From: a virus
Taxonomy: Duplodnaviria > Caudoviricetes
DNA: 27,449 nt
Direction: 5' to 3' (one strand)
Virus record (IMG/VR): IMGVR_UViG_3300020044_004996
Span: 1-27,449 of that record
Of the stretch, positions 1,274 through 21,951 are shown piece by piece (the stretch's first letter is position 1; the number at the start of each line of letters is the position of its first letter). A program made the translations under genes and the position numbers. Below the pieces are notes generated by a model. The model had not been told where the DNA came from and did no database searches. It saw only the letters and a program-made list of their open reading frames with translations.

Positions 1274-3423
1274 AGTGTCGCGTTTTGATTTATTTTAGCT
1301 ATTTTATTTTGTGTCTTTGTTAGTTCAGTTTCACTAACTACGGCATTCACCGTTATTTCGGTTTGTTGACTTTGTGAACCACCTACATTATTCATATCGT
1401 TCCCTTGACCAAACAAATTAAATGAAGGTGTAGCCGTTCCCGTTGTCGAACTTGAAGATGCTTCAGGAATCGAAGGTTGGTTTCCACCACCACCACCGCC
1501 CGTAGACGTGAATTGTGTAGATGCTATTTTAGCGATGTTAGCCGCTGATGTTGCAGCCGTTGCTACAAGTGCAGCAATTCCACCTGGGCTTGGAACACCC
1601 AAGATTGTTAAAGGTGATGCAGCCAAAGAAGCCGTGATTGCTTTTCCTGCGTCAATAATTGCGCCCGATAACTGCATAGCTTTGTTAAACTTGAATTGTT
1701 TTTTAGCAAGTTCTTCTTCTTCTTTACTTCCCTTTTTAACCTTCGCCATTTTAGCACCGAAAGCAATATCACCTACTGCTTGAATTGCTTTTGTAGAATC
1801 TTCAGCAAGTTTCAACGCAGCGTTTGCCGTGTCTAAAGCGGCAGTTCGTTTTTTTACTTCAGCATCTAAAGCATCCTTCGCTTGTTTGTCTGCATATTTT
1901 TTAGCGATGTCCGCAAGTTCTTTTTCTTGTTGTTCTTTTAGAACTTTTGTATCTAATCCAAATTGTTCGGCTTTTGCTATTAACTGAAAATATTTAGAAT
2001 TAACCCCTTCAACTTCACGACTTTGTTCATTCATTACTAAAAGTCTATATTGCTCGTAGTAATCTTCTTCTGCTTGTTGTGCTGCTTCTTGGTTTGCTTT
2101 TACTAAATCATTTAACTTTTGTTGTTTAGCCTTTTCAGCGTCTATAACGGTTTGTTCTTGTTTCTTTAGGTCTACTTGTAATTGTTGGTTATAAAGTTCA
2201 GCTAAACGCGTTTTTTCCGCTGCCGTTAATGCTTCGTTTTTTTGTAAATCCTGCATTTGTCGAACGTACTTTTCATTTATCGTAGCTATCTCGCGTTCGT
2301 TGTCGTTTGCAATTAATGATATTTCTAAGTCTGCTATCGTTCGTTGTGCGTTTATCCTATCTTCAGCAAATTTCTTAGCCGCATCCGCTGCTTTTTTAGC
2401 TGCATCCGCATTCGCTTTAGCTATCTTTTCGTTATGTTGTTTTTGTTTGTCAAGTTCCTTTTGTTGTTCTTCGTCTTTTTTAACTGCATCTTCTGCGACA
2501 ATAGCGTTACGTTCCCTTCTTTGTGTTAAGATTGTATTTTTCTCTTCTTTGATTTGGTCTTTTAATTTCTTAATCGTCTTTTTGTCTGCGTCTTCACCAA
2601 GTTTTTGCTGGGCATCTAACGCTTTTTCAGCTGCACTTAATCTCGACTTTGCTTCCGAACCTATCGCTTTACTTTTTGCTAACTCTAAATCCAAAGTTTC
2701 TTGCCCGTATATTTTAGCCATTCGGATTTCATAATCGAAATTACCGACAATCGTTTCTTGACGTGCTTTAGAACTTTCCATTATTTGTTCATTCGCTGCT
2801 AACATCTTTTCGGCATTTTCTTCAGCGGCAAAACTTGTGATTCCTAACCAATCCGTTAAATCTTTAAAGCCTTGAATCAAATCGTAAATAGGTTTCATTA
2901 AAAAGTCAATAATCTTTTTTAGAATTCCCATTTTATTAAGTAACAAAAGAATCGCTACTACGATAGCCGTGATAACTGCAACTAATAAAAAGATAGGATT
3001 AGCAAGTAACGAAATACCAAAAGCGATAAACTGCTTCATAGCTACCCCAACCGCTGACCCTAATTGTAAAACAACTTGCCCGAATCCTTTGAATTGAGCG
3101 GCAAAATCAGCGGGGTTAATTCCTTTTAATGCCGTAGTTAATAGTTTAGCCTTTTCACCTGCTTCGGCAAAGTCTAATGACATTATAGAACTTTTAATAG
3201 AACCTAATCCATTACTGACTTGTTCGAACTTAGAACCCGAAGCAAAGATATTTACTTGCTCGTTTGCGTCTGCTAATTGGTCTTTTAATTCCCCTGCTCT
3301 TTGTGATAATCTTGCAATTGATTCGGAATCGGTGGCATTGGCTAATTCGCCTTTTAAATCACGCAATTCTTTTTTAATTGCACCTATGCCAGTTATATTT
3401 AATGGAACTTGTATTTCATTCAT
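1270..3423 (-). CDS. Tape measure protein
   Basis: 717 aa; long Ala/Lys/Glu/Gln coiled coils, hydrophobic ANPIFLLVAVITAIVVAI segment, Gly-rich C-terminal linker. Confidence 0.85.
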   Translation of the reverse strand: MNEIQVPLNITGIGAIKKELRDLKGELANATDSESIARLSQRAGELKDQLADANEQVNIFASGSKFEQVSNGLGSIKSSIMSLDFAEAGEKAKLLTTALKGINPADFAAQFKGFGQVVLQLGSAVGVAMKQFIAFGISLLANPIFLLVAVITAIVVAILLLLNKMGILKKIIDFLMKPIYDLIQGFKDLTDWLGITSFAAEENAEKMLAANEQIMESSKARQETIVGNFDYEIRMAKIYGQETLDLELAKSKAIGSEAKSRLSAAEKALDAQQKLGEDADKKTIKKLKDQIKEEKNTILTQRRERNAIVAEDAVKKDEEQQKELDKQKQHNEKIAKANADAAKKAADAAKKFAEDRINAQRTIADLEISLIANDNEREIATINEKYVRQMQDLQKNEALTAAEKTRLAELYNQQLQVDLKKQEQTVIDAEKAKQQKLNDLVKANQEAAQQAEEDYYEQYRLLVMNEQSREVEGVNSKYFQLIAKAEQFGLDTKVLKEQQEKELADIAKKYADKQAKDALDAEVKKRTAALDTANAALKLAEDSTKAIQAVGDIAFGAKMAKVKKGSKEEEELAKKQFKFNKAMQLSGAIIDAGKAITASLAASPLTILGVPSPGGIAALVATAATSAANIAKIASTQFTSTGGGGGGNQPSIPEASSSSTTGTATPSFNLFGQGNDMNNVGGSQSQQTEITVNAVVSETELTKTQNKIAKINQNATL

Positions 3424-3427
3424 ATCG

Positions 3428-6181
3428 TTATGGGTAAACTCTTATTTCTATTGTTGTGTAATCTAAAACATTATCTATAAATGTGTTCGTGTTATCTTTG
3501 GTAACTATGTTAATTGTATCGTCACTTGCTCTTAGCATAAAACTAATATGACTTCCCGTTCCGCTATAAAAATTTTGGAATACAATATACGTTTTTAATT
3601 GTGGGAATGCACCTATTAACGTTCCTAAATAATCACCCGCTGAAGTTCGTGTCCAAACAATATCCCCTATCGTGTTTTCTAAAATCTCTAATGTAGGGTC
3701 TGCCGTTCCTGTTTGACTTATTAATGCTACATACTTTTGATAGGTAGGTAACATTTCACTAACCGAACGCCCGTTAATTGTTTCAGTTACCCGTAAATTA
3801 TTTGTAGTTAATCCATCTTCGGTTACGCTATTGTTATCACCGATAACCATTCCACGTAAACCTGGTGCAACTACATTCCCATTACCAAAGATTTGAAAGT
3901 TACCGAAACTTAAATTGACATTTGATAAAACGTTGTTGAAGTTTATAACTCCACCTGTAGCTAATGACGTAGTAGGGTCACCAACATAAATCGGTGCAGC
4001 TATCGGAAAGTTTACTAAATTAATTTCAGTATCTACGCTTATTAATTCGACTTTTGTTAGAACTTCATCGTTAGCGTTATAATCAATCACCTTGTTTATA
4101 TTCCACCAACTATTATCTATTCTTATTTTGTCGTTTAATTTTAGCGTTTGTATATCTGCTTCGTTTAATAGGAATGAAGCGATTAACATTTTACCGACAT
4201 TAATTTGATTAACCGTTCTTCGCCAATATAAGTTGTAAAGATTGTTGTTTGTTAATACGCTCGTTTGATAAAAGTAATAATCACAAACACCGAAGTTAAT
4301 ATCGAACGTTGGAGTTAACGCATCGTTAAAGTGACCCGTTTGCGGATAACTTGTTAATCCCGTTGTTCCTGTAGTTCCTTGCGTATAAATGTTAAAAGCT
4401 TGACACGTTTGTAACCCTGCATCGTATAGTATTCTTACGTTCGTGTTTGCGGCTATTCCATTAATCATTGGTAAATACGCATCGAACAAAGTTTTTCCTA
4501 CAGGGGTAGGGGAAAATAAAAGCTCTTTTGTGTCCGTGTCTTTAACGTATTCGTTATCGAAAGTATATTCGATTTGTCCGTAAGTTTCCGCTGTAGCTTG
4601 TGTGTAAACTACGTTCGGTGAATCCGTATCGGGTTTATATGTTAGCTTTAATTTCTTCTTGCTTAAATCGGGTAAGAATATTAATTCTTGTTCGATGTTC
4701 TTCGCAAGTTTTGTCGACCAATCTTTTTCCGCTCCCGAATCGTACCATTCATCCCGATGAACTAATATAAGTTCGTTAGGTTGGTTCGTGTTTGGATATG
4801 CGTAAAGATTATACATTTGAAATATCGCCTTAACGAAATCCGATTGTTTAATCTTTTGTGGGATGAATTGATTAACGATTTGAACACCCGTTAATATCTG
4901 AATGTTATTTGTTGGAACAATATCTACACCTAACGAAGTTAAATCCGCTTGAACGTTAACTTGTGCATCTGCAAGAGTTACCGTGTTTTGCCAAAAAGAT
5001 GGAATTGTTACCCCTGCGATTACGTTTAAATTAACTACATTAATTCCTACATTAATCGTTATTATATCACCCGTGTTTATGTTTATTGGAATTGGGTAAG
5101 TCGTAGTTCCTGAAGCGCTTAATATTGTCGATGTTCCTACAGGGTAAACCGCTGCATTTGGAATAGTTACCGAATCAATACTACCTATCGAGTTTACTCC
5201 TACTCCATTTATAAATAATTTAAAAACTAAATTGTATTTATAACTTCCTATCGCTAAACTAACGGGGTTTACTTCTAAGTTATCTAATAAGATATTAAAA
5301 GCATAATTGAAACTAAAATTATACGTTTGACCTTGTGCCGTGTCCGTGTTAAATGGCGCAGTATATTCACCCGTTGCAGGATTAAAAATACTTTGTGCGT
5401 CAAGCGTTTCCGTCCAGGTAGCAACGTTCTGAGTAAAGGATTGATTTATACCTATATTCGGTTGTGTGTAAGTTGTGGTAAAAGTAGTGTCCGCTGTTAC
5501 CCTGTAATCCGTGTAATCAAAGTTATTTACATCGCCATTATAAGGAATCAATAATTTATCGAAGTGTGCAGCCGTTAAACTTGACCACGAATAAGTAAAT
5601 CCACTATTTGAAAATATCCTATCAAAATAAGACTTAGCGTAAATAGCAGGCTTGAACTGATTAATCGTATAATTCGGAGTGTCATTATACGGCATCACAT
5701 ATTTATAATGGTCTGCTTGTGTATGTGACCAACTATTCGTAATAGCCGAAATATCAAACGTGTGGTCTAAATCGCTAAAGTCTAAATCGGTTAATTCTAA
5801 ATTCGTTATAGCCGTGTAGAATTCCGCTTGTGAATCACGAATCAAAACTTCGTATTCTAATCCTTGTTCATATGCATCCGTTAATTGAACTTTCTTTACA
5901 TTAACTAACTGAAGTAACGCATCGGTTACGATAGGAATTCCATTCTGCAAAATAGAACATCTTGTTAACGTGTTTATGTTAAATGTTCCCTCGCTTATAT
6001 TGACATCGTAATAGTTGTTTAAAAGTAGGTTATTATTCTTCGTACCACTTAGTGTTATAGACTTCGAGAAAGTTCCCTTACGTTGCGTTAAATCACGAAT
6101 ATCGCCTACTTGAAAATTCAAAGGTAGGTTAGTTCCTTCTTTGACATCTAAATAACCCGTTTCAATTTGTATCCTAACCAT
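3428..6181 (-). CDS. Large tail/baseplate structural protein
   Basis: 917 aa; N-terminal FSKSITLSGTKNNN motif typical of Bacteroidota siphovirus tail proteins; beta-rich; adjacent to the tape measure gene. Confidence 0.7.
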   Translation of the reverse strand: MVRIQIETGYLDVKEGTNLPLNFQVGDIRDLTQRKGTFSKSITLSGTKNNNLLLNNYYDVNISEGTFNINTLTRCSILQNGIPIVTDALLQLVNVKKVQLTDAYEQGLEYEVLIRDSQAEFYTAITNLELTDLDFSDLDHTFDISAITNSWSHTQADHYKYVMPYNDTPNYTINQFKPAIYAKSYFDRIFSNSGFTYSWSSLTAAHFDKLLIPYNGDVNNFDYTDYRVTADTTFTTTYTQPNIGINQSFTQNVATWTETLDAQSIFNPATGEYTAPFNTDTAQGQTYNFSFNYAFNILLDNLEVNPVSLAIGSYKYNLVFKLFINGVGVNSIGSIDSVTIPNAAVYPVGTSTILSASGTTTYPIPININTGDIITINVGINVVNLNVIAGVTIPSFWQNTVTLADAQVNVQADLTSLGVDIVPTNNIQILTGVQIVNQFIPQKIKQSDFVKAIFQMYNLYAYPNTNQPNELILVHRDEWYDSGAEKDWSTKLAKNIEQELIFLPDLSKKKLKLTYKPDTDSPNVVYTQATAETYGQIEYTFDNEYVKDTDTKELLFSPTPVGKTLFDAYLPMINGIAANTNVRILYDAGLQTCQAFNIYTQGTTGTTGLTSYPQTGHFNDALTPTFDINFGVCDYYFYQTSVLTNNNLYNLYWRRTVNQINVGKMLIASFLLNEADIQTLKLNDKIRIDNSWWNINKVIDYNANDEVLTKVELISVDTEINLVNFPIAAPIYVGDPTTSLATGGVINFNNVLSNVNLSFGNFQIFGNGNVVAPGLRGMVIGDNNSVTEDGLTTNNLRVTETINGRSVSEMLPTYQKYVALISQTGTADPTLEILENTIGDIVWTRTSAGDYLGTLIGAFPQLKTYIVFQNFYSGTGSHISFMLRASDDTINIVTKDNTNTFIDNVLDYTTIEIRVYP

Positions 6182-14499: not shown

Positions 14500-15167
14500 A
14501 ATTCATTTATTAAATTGTTATAATACTCTCTTGCTAATTCTATTCGTTCTTTAATTTGTTCTATTACGCTTTCGTCTTTTGCTATTTTAAAGACCTTCAC
14601 TCGCTTTTCTTTTGGTATATGGTCAAAGTTATGTTTCGACTGGACAAAATCTCTTACATCCAAATTTTCGTCTATTAAACCTTGTTTCCAATGTTCACGC
14701 CTAACTTCGTCTTCTACTATCTGAAAAGGTGTATTAACAAGGCAATAACATAATAATGCTTCGTCTTTACCTGTAAGCCACATATACCCTTGTAGTTGAT
14801 AGTAGTAATCTTTGTTTGGAATTTCATCTTCAAAGAAAGGGAAAGTTGTTGCGTCCCAACTTGTTTTTACATCGAGTAATATCTCATTCGTGTTTACATC
14901 GGGTGTTCCAGTTAAATAATCGTTGGTTAGGTTTTCTTCATTCTTGTAAATAAACCCTAAATTCAAAACATCGTTAACAAGTTCAATAGCTTCGTTTTCG
15001 CATTCGTTACCCTTGTCCGTGTATCTACTCCAAAATTCCTTACGGATTCCGTACGTGTTTTCAATTGCTAATTCCTGTAAGTAAGTTTTGCAAGTCTTTG
15101 ACAATGTTTCTCCTTTTGTCTTGGAGCTTGTCATAATTTTTCCTAATTGTGAAGCTCGGATTCTCAT
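14496..15167 (-). CDS. YqaJ/lambda-exonuclease-like PD-(D/E)xK nuclease
   Basis: IRASQLG, GNECENEA, GTPD, LLDVKTSW and YYYQLQGYMWLTG motifs. Confidence 0.85.
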   Translation of the reverse strand: MRIRASQLGKIMTSSKTKGETLSKTCKTYLQELAIENTYGIRKEFWSRYTDKGNECENEAIELVNDVLNLGFIYKNEENLTNDYLTGTPDVNTNEILLDVKTSWDATTFPFFEDEIPNKDYYYQLQGYMWLTGKDEALLCYCLVNTPFQIVEDEVRREHWKQGLIDENLDVRDFVQSKHNFDHIPKEKRVKVFKIAKDESVIEQIKERIELAREYYNNLINEL

Positions 15168-15727
15168 ACTAACAACAATGATTTCTTTTGTACTTCGTTT
15201 AAATCGAACTTCGCTTGTAGTTCTTCGGCAGTAAATTCTCCTGCTCTAATTGCTTCAATAGCTTTTAAAAAGCGTTCACCCTCAATTTTAGGTTTCTGTT
15301 TGCTTTTTTCTTCTTCTAATCTTTCAGTAAATTTCTTAGGTTCCGTCTTTGTGTTATCCTTTGAATCGGGGTCGCTTTCCGTTTCATCAATTAAGAACAA
15401 ACCATTTAAAGCGTATTTACGGGCGTAACTTGAAGCCGTGCCAGTACATTGTTCGCTTGACATTCCTTTGTGTTCTCCAAGTTCAGCAAAGCCATTTACT
15501 GATAAACAATCGTTATCTAAACTAATTGTTGCACTTGCTTTTAAAAATAGCTTGTTTCCTACTTGAACAATATCGTCGGTAAGCCTTAAAACTGCTCCGT
15601 ATTTTTGTAGCAATGGTTTAACTGATTCCAATATTTGTTCAGCACTTCGATACTTATAGTTTCCGAACTTGTTTAAACTTCCCTTTGGACATTTTAATTC
15701 TGCCTGAATTTTACTAAGTGTTTTCAT
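15164..15727 (-). CDS. ERF-family single-strand annealing protein
   Basis: NKFGNYKYRSAEQILESVKP and QCTGTASSYARKYALNGLFLIDE motifs. Confidence 0.9.
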   Translation of the reverse strand: MKTLSKIQAELKCPKGSLNKFGNYKYRSAEQILESVKPLLQKYGAVLRLTDDIVQVGNKLFLKASATISLDNDCLSVNGFAELGEHKGMSSEQCTGTASSYARKYALNGLFLIDETESDPDSKDNTKTEPKKFTERLEEEKSKQKPKIEGERFLKAIEAIRAGEFTAEELQAKFDLNEVQKKSLLLV

Positions 15728-15748
15728 AATTTGAATTTAATTGTTTGA

Positions 15749-15756
15749 CAAATATA
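15749..15756 (-). promoter_or_regulatory. Bacteroidota -7 box (TATATTTG) for the ERF operon
   Basis: TAnnTTTG followed by the leader TCAAACAATTAAATTCAAATTATG. Confidence 0.7.
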
Positions 15757-15806
15757 ACTATATTTTCTAATATAATACTAAAGAATAAAAAAATATGTAA
15801 ATTAAT

Positions 15807-15857
15807 TTATAACAGTTGCTAAAAGACATTGAAACGTCATTTAGCTTTATGTTAGCG
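15807..15857 (+). repeat. attC-like site 1 (51 bp)
   Basis: TTATAAC-AGTT-GCTAAAAGAC..GTCATTTAGC-TTTAT-GTTAGCG: TAAC/GTTA cores around an inverted repeat. Confidence 0.7.
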
Positions 15858-16073
15858 GTAATTGCCTAACCACTTTTCATAACGATTGTAAAATATCTGC
15901 ATAGCAATTTCAAAACCTATGTATTCTCTAAATGAAACATCTTGCTTGAATTTAGCCAACTCTTCCTTCATTTCTTTATATGTGTTTATTGCTCTCATCT
16001 GATGCAACGAACCGCTAACAACACCCTTAACGCTATTGGCTACTTTCTGCTTAGTTAATAATTTTGTTTTCAT
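15852..16073 (-). CDS. Cassette A hypothetical protein
   Basis: 73 aa; the ATG lies in the loop of attC-like site 2 and the stop is the TAA of the site 1 core. Confidence 0.6.
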   Translation of the reverse strand: MKTKLLTKQKVANSVKGVVSGSLHQMRAINTYKEMKEELAKFKQDVSFREYIGFEIAMQIFYNRYEKWLGNYR

Positions 16074-16139
16074 AATATAATTCTGTTTTAATTGATAATT
16101 TTAGTTTCTAAATCGCCAACAGCGTAAGGCTGCAAAACG
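15852..16139. mobile_element. Integron-like gene cassette A (288 bp)
   Basis: Begins at G|TTAGCGGT (15851-15859); its site 2 starts with the exact complement ACCGCTAAC (16011-16019). Confidence 0.7.
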
Positions 16140-16145
16140 TTATAG
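16013..16145 (+). repeat. attC-like site 2 (133 bp)
   Basis: CGCTAAC-AACAC-CCTTAACGCTATTGGC...GCCAACAGCGTAAGG-CTGCAAAAC-GTTATAG; one unpaired base in the left arm. Confidence 0.8.
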
Positions 16146-16343
16146 GGCATTTAAAGAATCCCATTCCTTGTCAGCTTGTTTCATTGCCTTTTTGAAGTCG
16201 GGCAAAGTTGCTGCCGTAAGTTGATTAGTCTTGTGCCATTCAACTGATTTTTCGCCACGATAAGCGGCTTTTGATAATGCTTTTGCCCTTTTAGCATCTT
16301 CACGTTCTCTTGCTTCGTAATACTTTCTGTCTGATTCTGTCAT
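16140..16343 (-). CDS. Cassette B hypothetical protein (MTESDRKYY..., 67 aa; in-frame upstream ATG at 16430)
   Basis: The stop is the TAA of the site 2 core; the alternative start lies in the loop of site 3. Confidence 0.6.
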   Translation of the reverse strand: MTESDRKYYEAREREDAKRAKALSKAAYRGEKSVEWHKTNQLTAATLPDFKKAMKQADKEWDSLNAL

Positions 16344-16487
16344 TATTTTAAGAATAAACGCCCTATAACATACGCTATACAAAAGCAGGGGCTTTACTGC
16401 TAATACAAGCGGTGTGCATCTATTTATCATTTGTGGTAGGCTGAAAGGGAGTGCATCTTAACCCCTGCCTTCGTATAGCGTCAGCCG
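16140..16487. mobile_element. Integron-like gene cassette B (348 bp)
   Basis: Begins at G|TTATAGGGC (16139-16148); its site 3 starts with the complement GCCCTATAAC (16360-16369). Confidence 0.7.
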
Positions 16488-16493
16488 TTATAA
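16363..16493 (+). repeat. attC-like site 3 (131 bp)
   Basis: CTATAAC-ATA-CGCTATACAAAAGCAGGGG...CCCCTGCCTTCGTATAGCG-TCAGCC-GTTATAA. Confidence 0.8.
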
Positions 16494-16850
16494 AAATTTT
16501 CTTAATCCAGCAGCACAACGTTCAATGCTGTTTGCTCGTTCTTGAAGGCTTTTTATTTGCTCTTTGATAGTTAGCTTACAATCACTTGTAAAATACCCGT
16601 TTGACGTGGCTATTAAAGGAATAATGCCGTTTGTACGTATGTAGTTAACCATTTTACGTAATCTCGGACCATTCATTTTAATTTTATAACCTTTCGTGTT
16701 TAGGTATTCGTTCATTCGGGTTACTATTAACTCCGACTTAATTGGGTTTTCCTTTTTGTAGCTTCGAAATCCGTGAACTACTACGGGTAAAATCTCCATT
16801 TCTTCGCTTGTAAGTTCGTGTGTGAACTCTTCAAAATTAGTTACGCTCAT
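16488..16850 (-). CDS. Hypothetical protein, possible winged-helix DNA-binding protein
   Basis: RLRKMVNYIRTNGIIPLIATSNGYF helix-wing-like segment; the stop coincides with the site 3 GTTA core. Confidence 0.6.
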   Translation of the reverse strand: MSVTNFEEFTHELTSEEMEILPVVVHGFRSYKKENPIKSELIVTRMNEYLNTKGYKIKMNGPRLRKMVNYIRTNGIIPLIATSNGYFTSDCKLTIKEQIKSLQERANSIERCAAGLRKFL

Positions 16851-17093: not shown

Positions 17094-17115
17094 AATTTAA
17101 GTTTTAATTGTTTGA

Positions 17116-17123
17116 CAAATATA
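17116..17123 (-). promoter_or_regulatory. Bacteroidota -7 box (TATATTTG)
   Basis: Followed by the leader TCAAACAATTAAAACTTAAATTATG, nearly identical to the ERF leader. Confidence 0.7.
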
Positions 17124-17133
17124 GTTATTCTTT

Positions 17134-17655
17134 TTAATATAGCTCTAATTGTTTAATCTTTAATTTATAGATGTTAATTAATTCTTTGAGTTCGTCTTTT
17201 GTAAACTTCCGTGTTTTATGACCTTCCAGTTCCAAAAGTGTTAATTGTTCTTCTCCTATCTTGTTAATTAATCCTTTGCGATATTCGATTAGATTACCTG
17301 AAAGATAGGTGTTACAATGTTCGCATTGAAGATGTACATTTAATTCATTAAATCGAACGTTCCAATGGTTATTAGCATTGAAGTAATGTCCTGCGTTTTC
17401 TTTTAATGGTTTCTTTTGGCAGCTTATACAAATTTGTCCTTTATCTCGTAATCTGATATATTTATTAAAAATAATTTGAGTAGCTTTAATTAGTTCCTGA
17501 ACAGTCTCTAAATCGTTCTTCATTTTAGCTTTCGTCTTTTTCCAAGTCTTTGCCTTTTCGGATTCTACCCAAACACGGACGCATTCAGGTTCTAAACAAT
17601 ACTTTTGATTGAAGCGGATAGGCTCAAACTTCTCTTTGCAATTACGGCATCTCAT
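17134..17655 (-). CDS. ninG: NinG/Rap-like recombination endonuclease
   Basis: FNKYIRLRD, CISC, AGHY, RFNELNVHLQCEHCN and YRKGLINKIG motifs. Start moved to the ATG at 17655, which is ATGA-coupled to the HNH stop. Confidence 0.85.
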   Translation of the reverse strand: MRCRNCKEKFEPIRFNQKYCLEPECVRVWVESEKAKTWKKTKAKMKNDLETVQELIKATQIIFNKYIRLRDKGQICISCQKKPLKENAGHYFNANNHWNVRFNELNVHLQCEHCNTYLSGNLIEYRKGLINKIGEEQLTLLELEGHKTRKFTKDELKELINIYKLKIKQLELY

Positions 17656-20080: not shown

Positions 20081-20731
20081 TTAATTTATAATATTTTCGT
20101 CATTTTCACGTTCAGGTTCCCAAGCCATTGAAAATTCCTTATCTGAAAACATTTCAATTAAACCGCTTATTTGTGTTAATCTTAAAACTTCATCCCTATC
20201 CATTCCAAGTTCTTTACAAATTTTTTCATCAGACCAATTTCTTCTTTTTAAATCAACTACAATATCAGACATTGATTCTACTTTATGTTTACCTCTTGCT
20301 CTATTGTGACGAATTGTTGAAGCGACTCTATCATTTTGTCCTTTTTGAGATTCTCTAATAGTAACTACAGGTAAATATCCAAAAACCCTGCTTTGAATAT
20401 CTTTACATTCTTTACCTACTCTATTTCTATGAAACCCGTCTATAACTTCCCTTGTCCCATCATTATTGTCCATAGAAACAATAGGCTGTGTATATCCATC
20501 ATTTGAAATTGAAAGCCTTAATAATTCCATTTCAGGTGGTGCAACTGAATTCGGGTTATAATCATTAGCGTAAACAGTTTCATTTTTAACCCATAAAACA
20601 CAATCTACTGGTTCAGATTTAAATGGTGATATTTCGTGTAAAGCTAATTTAATTTCATTTATAGCATATACTTTATTATCTAAATCCATATTAGATAACT
20701 CATTAATTAATTCATTGATTTTTGTTTTCAT
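20081..20731 (-). CDS. ibrB: IbrB-like ParB/Srx-domain protein
   Basis: EPVDCVLWV, ANDYNPNSVAPPEM, GYTQPIV, VIDGFHR and TIRHNRARGKH motifs. Confidence 0.85.
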   Translation of the reverse strand: MKTKINELINELSNMDLDNKVYAINEIKLALHEISPFKSEPVDCVLWVKNETVYANDYNPNSVAPPEMELLRLSISNDGYTQPIVSMDNNDGTREVIDGFHRNRVGKECKDIQSRVFGYLPVVTIRESQKGQNDRVASTIRHNRARGKHKVESMSDIVVDLKRRNWSDEKICKELGMDRDEVLRLTQISGLIEMFSDKEFSMAWEPERENDENIIN

Positions 20732-20736
20732 AATTA

Positions 20737-21951
20737 TTAATTTAAAAATTTATTTTCTATTCTTTGGCGTTTTTTTAATTCCAAATATTTTTGATATGCT
20801 TCTGTTTTATGTTGAGTAAAACCAAGACCTTTACACCAAAAATCATTTCTTAATAAAGATTTACAAACCCTTCTCCAACTTGGTGCTAATTTTTGCGACT
20901 CTAATAAATATGGCGCTTCATCAGGGATACCATTATCATAACCTCTTTCTTTCCACCATTTTATAAACGTAAATATTTTATTCATATAATGCTCTTTAGT
21001 CTTTTCAGGTATACTATTTAGAAATAACATAGCAAATGATTCCCAAGTATGGTTATTTGGTTTTGTTATTTTATTATAACCAGTTATAGAGCCACTTTCA
21101 TTTATATATAATGCTCCTGAATTTGCTCCATTAACTCTTGTAACAACTTTTGCCCACGTTTCAGGTTCTATTAAATGAAATAACCATAAGCCTCTTCTTT
21201 GGTCATCTCCATATGGTTGGCAAATTCTTTGTTGATGAATAGATAAACCAGCCTTAAACATTAATTCATATAACTGATTATATCTTTTATTTTGATTCTT
21301 AGCGTGATAAATCCAAATATCTTCTGTTGTCCAATCATAAATTGGATATAAATTATAAACATTATTAGTCACTTTTGTAGTATAGCATTTATTGTCAAAT
21401 GTTTCTTTTATATTTGATGAAATGGTTCTATATCTATTTAATGATTCATCTGAACGTATACCGACTAAACAAGCTGTAGTTTTACCTTGTGAATACCATT
21501 CTCCAAATTCAGGTACAAATTCTTCAAATTCCATCCCGTCTCTAAAGAAATTAAAATAATTCAAATCCGTTATTGATATTTTATTTGGGGTTCTAATCCA
21601 ATTTTCTTGTTGCTCGGAGTCCCAGCATTTCCAAAATGGTTCATAAACAGAAACTGCATTTCTTAAATGAATAGGTAAACAAACCCAATATACATCTACA
21701 AATTCCTTATATTCCTCTATGCATTTTTCAATATGTTCAATTGTTAATTTATATTGACCTTCTAAATCAACTATTAACAAGCCTATTTTAATCTTTCTTT
21801 TTTTACATTCATCCATTACTAAATGAAGCATAACGGTTGAATCTTTACCTGCACTAAATGATAAATATACTTTTTCAAAATTGTTAAATGTATATTCAAT
21901 TCTTTCTTTTGCGGCTTCAAAAACATTTATATTTAATCTAAATTTAGGCAT
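20737..21951 (-). CDS. ibrA: IbrA-like PAPS-reductase-family (DUF3440) protein
   Basis: PP-loop SFSAGKDS, VGIRSDESLNR, YPIYDWTTEDIW, QRICQPYG and SWRRVCKSLLRNDFWC motifs. Confidence 0.85.
   Translation of the reverse strand: MPKFRLNINVFEAAKERIEYTFNNFEKVYLSFSAGKDSTVMLHLVMDECKKRKIKIGLLIVDLEGQYKLTIEHIEKCIEEYKEFVDVYWVCLPIHLRNAVSVYEPFWKCWDSEQQENWIRTPNKISITDLNYFNFFRDGMEFEEFVPEFGEWYSQGKTTACLVGIRSDESLNRYRTISSNIKETFDNKCYTTKVTNNVYNLYPIYDWTTEDIWIYHAKNQNKRYNQLYELMFKAGLSIHQQRICQPYGDDQRRGLWLFHLIEPETWAKVVTRVNGANSGALYINESGSITGYNKITKPNNHTWESFAMLFLNSIPEKTKEHYMNKIFTFIKWWKERGYDNGIPDEAPYLLESQKLAPSWRRVCKSLLRNDFWCKGLGFTQHKTEAYQKYLELKKRQRIENKFLN

Follow-up and report, generated by a model that had tools for sequence, protein, structure and literature searches.

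How could a small phage hold an integron-like row of gene cassettes when its record, rated 94% complete, gives no match to a tyrosine recombinase (PF00589)? The stretch of DNA analysed here (the window, 27,449 nt) is a 27.4-kb linear virus record whose minus strand carries nearly all of the genes, among them those for terminase, portal, tape measure, helicase, NinG, exonuclease and ERF. Three hairpins, each opening with TAAC and closing with GTTA, lie in the space that separates the ERF gene from a conserved 120-aa gene (16488-16850). A preliminary description, made from the letters alone, had read them as the sites of a two-cassette array. The parts of this locus are the following.

15164..15727, minus strand: ERF single-strand annealing protein gene, the downstream flank, with its own promoter copy at 15736-15781
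15790..15809, minus strand: near-palindromic 20-nt tail that accompanies the resident site and is missing from alleles with no site
15810..15854, minus strand: site 1, a short resident att site of 45 nt from TAAC to GTTA (51 bp with cores when empty)
15852..16139, minus strand: cassette 1, 288 bp, consisting of the site 2 body and a payload, with crossovers at 15851|15852 and 16139|16140
15852..16073, minus strand: cassette 1 ORF, 73 aa, with its start codon inside the site 2 loop and the core TAA as its stop
16016..16142, minus strand: site 2, a 127-nt att site with 6/2-nt spacers and one bulged T on the 3' arm
16140..16487, minus strand: cassette 2, 348 bp, consisting of the site 3 body and a payload in a GTTATAGGGCGTTT...AAATGCCCTATAAC frame, with a crossover at 16487|16488
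16140..16343, minus strand: cassette 2 ORF, 67 aa, whose homologs begin at MTESD
16366..16490, minus strand: site 3, a 125-nt att site with 5/2-nt spacers and a bulge-free 20-bp stem that includes two minus-strand G-T pairs
16488..16850, minus strand: conserved 120-aa phage gene (phrog_2113), whose stop codon is the source of the outer core of the array
17103..17148, minus strand: predicted phage promoter, a 46-nt repeat (D1) with a Bacteroidota-type -7 element, TATATTTG, at 17116-17123

With three sites in 0.7 kb and no integrase, this architecture is that of a phage CALIN, whose definition asks for at least two att sites within 4 kb without an integrase. Neither the 73-aa nor the 67-aa ORF had a Pfam or PHROGs family at the cut-off or an Atlas match. 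The protein of cassette 1 has 31 homologs, whose N-termini vary as far as the core-encoded VSGS, and the A-rich loop of site 2 contains the start of its ORF. The search for cassette 1 in another DNA context returned protein homologs only and no viral locus. In cassette 2, a longer frame of 96 aa that starts at 16430 arises by reading through the arm of site 3.

The element TATATTTG, recognised by a Bacteroidota promoter consensus (PMC6847099, as far as its available text goes), occurs 11 times on the minus (coding) strand of the window and once on the plus strand. Promoter-like repeats of this type lie on the minus strand at 15736-15781 and 17103-17148, together with nine more TATATTTG elements. 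The promoter at 17103-17148 would transcribe the cassettes within an operon. Given these elements, a homolog of one cargo protein in a Bacteroidales genome bin and cassette frames shared with Flavobacterium, the phage host is probably a member of the Bacteroidota. A terminase search returned distant relatives only, near 33% identity, too weak for naming a host. Elsewhere in the window (20081-21951), a ParB-like gene adjoins a PAPS-reductase/DUF3440 gene; this pair may modify phage DNA.

The six core motifs lie where the preliminary description put them, with TAAC at 15810, 16016 and 16366 and GTTA at 15851, 16139 and 16487, and the cores are indeed mismatched within sites and matched across them. 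Strict pairs beyond the 4-bp core numbered 0, 2 and 2 within sites versus 5, 6 and 4 across sites, and the within-site pairing of site 2 (T2/G2) had 0 strict pairs. Among the 42,642 TAAC x GTTA pairs of the window, at least four such pairs occur in 231, at least five in 68 and at least six in 25, which gives the cross-site pairings a product of about 5e-9 (a post hoc figure that assumes independence). The two ends of cassette 2 pair over 15 nt at 93%. These coordinates directly give cassettes of 288 and 348 bp and an empty site that is self-complementary. The "permuted cores" themselves are no novelty, since cross-site complementarity is an ordinary property of integrated integron cassettes.

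On their own the hairpins are modest in DNA folding energy. The minus/plus values were -6.8/-6.5 kcal/mol for site 1, -14.2/-8.3 for site 2 and -20.0/-18.7 for site 3, with minus-strand z scores of -2.6, -1.3 and -3.2, so that only site 2 failed to beat its shuffles. The earlier claim that one strand folds better is thus clear for site 2, while the difference is slight for sites 1 and 3.

A covariance model trained on 45 phage sites together with sites 2 and 3 ranked site 1, which was outside the training set, third in the window (E 0.028), and found no further site there below E 0.2; in relatives it placed the sites of the hotspot described below at the junctions. With default filters this model loses real sites, and turning the filters off recovers them. 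A first stem detector was weak on the whole window (7 matches, site 1 missed), and the second misses both site 1 and the published site P12002L_attC1, so the site counts given below are lower bounds biased to strong stems. No Rfam family matches the array region. Against cultured phage and plasmid DNA, the array had no plasmid match and two short Staphylococcus phage matches, which were judged to be chance. Terminators and repeated extragenic palindromes were ruled out by the cross-site matching of cores and by the precise presence and absence of sites in relatives; terminator-like matches numbered one, against 0.9 expected.

Because the cores are symmetric, two readings of the array give perfect circles, and it is the relatives that decide between them. 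We therefore compared the best 80 of the 249 viral relatives of the flanking 120-aa gene. In 67 of these 80 no att site follows the stop codon, and 39 of them read TTATAA|T there; in the other 13, the stop has the form TTATAA|C, and there a hairpin arm sets in immediately. Four of the 13 end in the site 1 of the window and carry other cassettes in front of it: an MT-A70 methyltransferase (L001), a 71-aa ORF (L023), in L058 an 83-aa ORF inside a hairpin loop together with a blank payload of 29 nt, and in L079 an N6-N4 methyltransferase. The remaining nine end in a second short resident site, which is empty in five and holds one clean cassette in L007. In L039, L040 and L043 it is accompanied by a methyltransferase behind a truncated site; in this cassette (3361-4320 in these loci) the att site has been shortened, apparently by a deletion that ran from the left arm to the similar core.

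A metagenome scan for site 1 returned four contigs, two with the N6-N4 methyltransferase cassette of L079 (L111 and L112) and two with exactly the empty site that had been predicted (L113 and L114). In a contig from run X1, site 1 is followed by a different 565-nt insert, a mismatch-free cassette 2 and then other sequence at 16491; the whole of cassette 2 (16132-16491) is thus identical within another array. The empty 51-bp site and the alternative cassettes at the same base, both foreseen in the preliminary description, are therefore found in nature, and the same relatives bear out its resident landing site, its cassette boundaries and its plus-strand G|TT crossover. What it had missed is that the landing site is altogether missing from most relatives. 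Judged from these comparisons, the array is real, mobile and integron-like, and site 1, its constant end, is likely the landing site.

The same intergenic spot also takes up genes in other ways. Among the 80 loci, 18 with a measured gap of more than 200 nt have genes without any att site at the hotspot, and four more are cut off within such genes. Such att-free genes after the 120-aa gene were seen in L002, L012, L017, L027, L030, L038, L048, L065 and L076, and the one tested is a methyltransferase. The spot after the 120-aa gene is a general accessory hotspot.

With regard to polarity, the cassette could be read in the canonical way, in which each hairpin belongs to the gene ending at it (cassettes of 206 and 350 bp) and site 3 is the resident site. 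Symmetric cores permit this reading, self-complementary circles also result from it, and payloads do change bodies over time. However, the hairpin after the conserved gene differs from one filled allele to another while site 1 is constant, and the empty allele keeps site 1; copies of the site 3 body in other phages are 92-100% identical, and in most of them the match begins at TAA|C. The canonical reading is largely refuted by the empty allele, and we give it hardly any weight.

Further evidence on polarity came from 247 pairs of near-identical bodies, in which the upstream core was common to 4 pairs and the downstream core to 81. Together with the relatives, these pairs indicate that the att body travels with the gene that comes next on the coding strand, as is implied by lengths of 288 and 348 bp. 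Compared in this way, a cassette consists on the coding strand of C, the hairpin body, GTTA, the payload and TAA, with the joint at TAA|C, which corresponds to G|TTA on the plus strand of the window. The boundaries of cassette 1 rest on the cross-site core match and on this polarity as seen in relatives. The payload of cassette 2, with both cores, also sits at the end of another gene and under a different body in L085/L086, and a loose read end falls at 16491 in three runs. Bodies also swap partners, as the downstream cores differ in 166 of the 247 pairs, which means that the TAA|C rule is not the sole mode of exchange. The varied N-termini among homologs of the cassette 1 protein, up to the core, are a further sign of such swaps. 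The cassettes would be expected to travel as circles; in the reads of 8 runs, none of which covers the whole array, no circle or excision joint was found.

A different history of the locus has some weight, though clearly less than the main one: the cassette blocks could have been copied from recombinase-bearing phages by homologous recombination, with site-specific movement already ended in this lineage. The ERF and exonuclease genes next to the array, the att-free insertions at the same spot, the truncated site in L039/L040/L043 and the missing circle joints all agree with it. So does the scatter of the resident site over the tree of the flanking gene, where 500 of 500 shuffles were as low (68 of 84 loci parsed, 51 distinct), from which we conclude that homologous recombination also moves the resident site. 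Against this history, at least five different fillings run exactly from the TAA|C of the gene to site 1 and have only the 4-nt core in common with the flanks. Moreover, the gene ends of a filled allele (L111) and an empty one (L114) are near-identical, and site 1 does not occur in donor arrays, being confined to this hotspot in two collection scans (4/4 viral and 4/4 metagenome matches). Beside these alleles, L112 has the same cassette and site 1 as L111 but differs in the ERF-type gene that lies downstream; relatives carry one or the other of two ERF variants, at about 38-45% versus 70-81% identity.

To look for the enzyme behind such movement, we turned to other genomes that carry these sites. 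A PF00589 gene was present in one of five array-bearing phage records (G001), where 17 detected sites, one of them a copy of site 3, are lined up ahead of it (G001:132124-139149). Its product is a 270-aa recombinase with PF13495 and PF00589 domains, which scores 151 bits against the TIGR02249 integron integrase model (cut-off 265), is also below the XerA, XerC and XerD cut-offs, and aligns to IntI4 in two pieces, without the IntI (I2) insertion. In 156 of 160 relatives having both motifs, the spacing from G-LR to H-LRH is 85-92 residues, compared with 134 in IntI4 and 93 in archaeal XerA.

The recombinase and the sites keep company in a regular way. Across 80 viral loci of the recombinase, a site lies upstream in 65 and downstream in 1; counted by sites, 264 of 267 are upstream of the recombinase gene, 261 have the longer spacer on the coding-strand 5' arm, and all 121 called payload genes (with 14 more uncalled) are on the folded strand. 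Across 80 prokaryote loci, mostly from Bacteroidota, 31 of 33 sites are downstream of the recombinase, 29 of them with mirror geometry, and 9 of 9 payload genes are on the non-folded strand; many of these contigs end soon after the recombinase gene. The phage-trained covariance model finds the chromosomal sites at E values down to 5e-20. The TAAC-GTTA site family thus adjoins a recombinase both in phages and in Bacteroidota chromosomes, and the link between enzyme and sites is one of genomic neighbourhood in these other genomes.

Upstream of the phage recombinase gene, at a distance of 35-130 nt (L198-L277), a motif TAAC-TATTATATAT was found in 65 of the 66 distinct loci whose flank was long enough, against 8 of 378 control windows; in 37 of 52 cases the upstream letters of the motif agree with the last cassette's core. 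This motif is an attI-like platform. A looser form, on the other strand, follows the gene in 38 of 67 bacterial loci (controls 3 of 251). By inspection, the array of the window has no such motif. In large phages the integron-like platform is complete, and their arrays reach 17 sites. As for the earlier proposal of an IntI-like enzyme acting in trans, the supply in trans is borne out by the relatives, but the linked recombinase is not a classical IntI and lacks the IntI insertion.

Stem covariation within sites that were themselves selected for their stems is a circular argument, and we therefore used intervals picked by payload cores alone, with no selection on the stem. The arms paired in 70 of 86 such intervals versus 12 of 426 mismatched arm pairs, and on the coding strand G-T pairs outnumbered A-C pairs by 125 to 7. 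Among 76 sites, 61 had no bulge, 12 had one on the 5' arm and 3 on the 3' arm. In mobile phage sites the spacer of the 5' arm is 2-4 nt longer in 264 of 267. Neighbouring phage sites match in at least 5 of 6 letters in 135 of 198 pairs, versus 12 of 267 within sites. Sites 2 and 3 have the features of the family, which are spacers of 5-7 versus 1-3 nt and lengths of about 45, 85 or 125 nt. Site 1 is of the short class but has nearly symmetric spacers (5 and 4 nt), and the spacer excess is only 1 in both resident sites of the hotspot. The resident sites lie at the same array end as the attI-like motif does in enzyme-bearing phages, and may be regarded as tamed sites that accept cassettes.

The array could also be a plain phage CALIN, in which a classical host IntI recombines ordinary attC sites. 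The AAC/GTT core, the G|TT crossover and the G-T bias are attC traits (PMC5027507, in its available part), and the accessible text of PMC9892861 (Qi et al. 2023) describes 17 CALINs in phages and the recombination of five phage sites by IntI1. This explanation appears improbable, because the sites have the 2-4-nt asymmetric spacer described above and are mostly bulge-free, and the neighbouring enzyme stays far below the integron integrase cut-off and has no insertion. In the same report, P12002L_attC1, which has the geometry and loop of the present family, is the only one of six sites not recombined by IntI1. In addition, complete integrons are rare in Bacteroidetes, the available text of PMC9024848 giving one. 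The system of the array departs from classical integrons in three defining features, namely extrahelical bases, gene orientation and IntI.

Gene orientation is a point missing from the preliminary description: the cassette genes are on the folded strand, opposite to bacterial cassettes. Of 153 cassettes in the phage loci L085-L110 and L198-L277, 63 have the first ATG of their longest ORF inside the att body, and 42 use the core TAA as the stop. Where the first ATG lies inside the att body, the att arm encodes the N-terminus and can mislead protein searches. A second place where genes are held is the hairpin loop of an att site, which can contain an entire ORF (L058:1794-2132; G001:136442-136754).

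The frame of cassette 2 surrounds 20 payloads in 19 unrelated groups, and 18 of the payloads (17 unrelated) are from phages, the window included; these loci were baited with site 3 or the recombinase and are not a random sample. Run X6 gave one more such frame. The framed genes run forward in the 18 phage records and are reversed in two from the chromosome of Flavobacterium cheonanense, where an array after a recombinase (L177:9862-12280) has two cassettes in this frame. That one frame holds both phage payloads and reversed Flavobacterium genes is a hint as to the making of cassettes. Four payloads are blank, 29 nt long and built as core-CGTTTTAATG-core, and CGTTTTAATG is also the loop in 5 of 8 short sites. 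It is common to the 29-nt blanks and the shortest sites (L058, L099, L198, L226 and L231; short sites in L101, L108, G001 and P12002L). Two 8-nt blank payloads also occur. The filled frames split the CGTTTTAATG loop, which suggests that genes are loaded at that loop.

The tail behind site 1 gives a clue to the origin of the resident site. Its pattern had 15 viral matches, 12 of which are hotspot loci, with the hairpin in front of the tail in 12 of 12; a search for an allele that has the tail without the hairpin gave none. After site 1, the tail ends one base off a perfect insertion scar, and it is possibly the worn payload of a gene-less cassette.

Taking all of this together, we consider that the locus is a two-cassette array at a resident dock, likely built by a borrowed short integron-like tyrosine recombinase that the phage itself does not encode, with a probability of about 0.75. 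The lender would probably be the Bacteroidota host or a larger co-infecting phage. The coding strand would fold when single-stranded and be the strand exchanged, as in integrons. Site 1 would be a domesticated site that acts like attI and has lost its 2-4-nt spacer asymmetry, and it may have arisen when a gene-less cassette landed on the TAA stop codon of gene 16488-16850. The reversed gene orientation would allow the cassettes to be read from the upstream promoter of the phage, and the stop codon of the host gene would be left undisturbed.

More tentatively, and with somewhat less than even confidence, we propose that these loci belong to a second integron-type system of Bacteroidota and their phages. 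In it, an I2-less recombinase would act on folded single strands, phages would have their own pool of reversed cassettes with an attI platform, small enzyme-less phages would turn a blank cassette that sits at a stop codon into a tame dock, and new cassettes would be genes loaded either way into the TTTA loop of blank frames. If true, a widespread cassette system with an I2-less enzyme would provide a natural test of integron evolution, and such a system would escape the usual detectors; the available text of PMC8352920 has no Bacteroidota attC model. For phage biology, it would offer a site-specific route to mosaic genomes and a quick gain of anti-restriction methyltransferases. What the locus itself contributes is a graded set of alleles in the population (no site, empty site, one cassette, several cassettes) and a minimal dock of 51 bp that lends itself to assays. 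The frames, blank and filled, are relevant to the genesis of cassettes, for which no reliable model exists according to the accessible text of Escudero et al. 2016 (PMC4792948); if genes are indeed loaded into the TTTA loop, that genesis becomes directly testable.

In the literature searched, which lay largely outside subscription papers (further sources are PMC4889954 and PMC11023631), no description or name of the TAAC-GTTA cassette system was found, and one member, in P12002L, is published. Like integron cassettes and attC sites (PMC5027507 and PMC4792948, in their available parts), the present array has an AAC/GTT core, a G|TT crossover and mutually complementary cassette ends. It also has imperfect hairpins whose G-T pairs favour one strand, and relatives with a simple attI-like site by a PF13495 and PF00589 tyrosine recombinase. 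Unlike classical attC sites, its sites have a spacer asymmetry of 2-4 nt and are mostly without extrahelical bases, and unlike in classical cassettes, the gene in phages occupies the folded strand, with a start that is often within the site itself. The associated recombinase differs from IntI in having no I2 insertion. That insertion is held to let integron integrases use folded single-stranded sites (PMC4792948), and the part of PMC8138268 available describes it as not fully conserved in an integron-like subgroup.

Also close are the phage CALINs of Qi et al. (PMC9892861), above all that of Polaribacter phage P12002L, where integrase-less att clusters likewise occur in a phage with DNA methyltransferase cargo. 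Its site P12002L_attC1, on the coding strand between two methyltransferase genes, has the same geometry, loop motif and reversed orientation as this family and puts one member in print. The available text of that study treats the sites as ordinary attC and is without the cognate enzyme, the attI-like platform, the orientation rule and the series of empty and filled alleles.

The resident site can also be compared with insertion outside the usual targets. Loot et al. in 2024 reportedly described off-target insertion at attG sites. An origin of CALINs by an IntI located elsewhere is given in the available text of PMC8618304. As in these cases, the resident site could have begun with a first cassette that landed on a bare target of chromosomal type; unlike attG insertion, the target here would be a stop codon, and once in place the site appears to act as a lasting dock. 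Finally, the CTX phage with the XerCD of its host (PMC4792948, in its accessible part) is also an enzyme-less phage that relies on a folded single strand and an I2-lacking recombinase. In CTX, however, the whole genome integrates at dif, whereas here small cassettes enter the phage genome, and the enzyme, unlike XerCD, appears to be a dedicated one with its own attI-like site.
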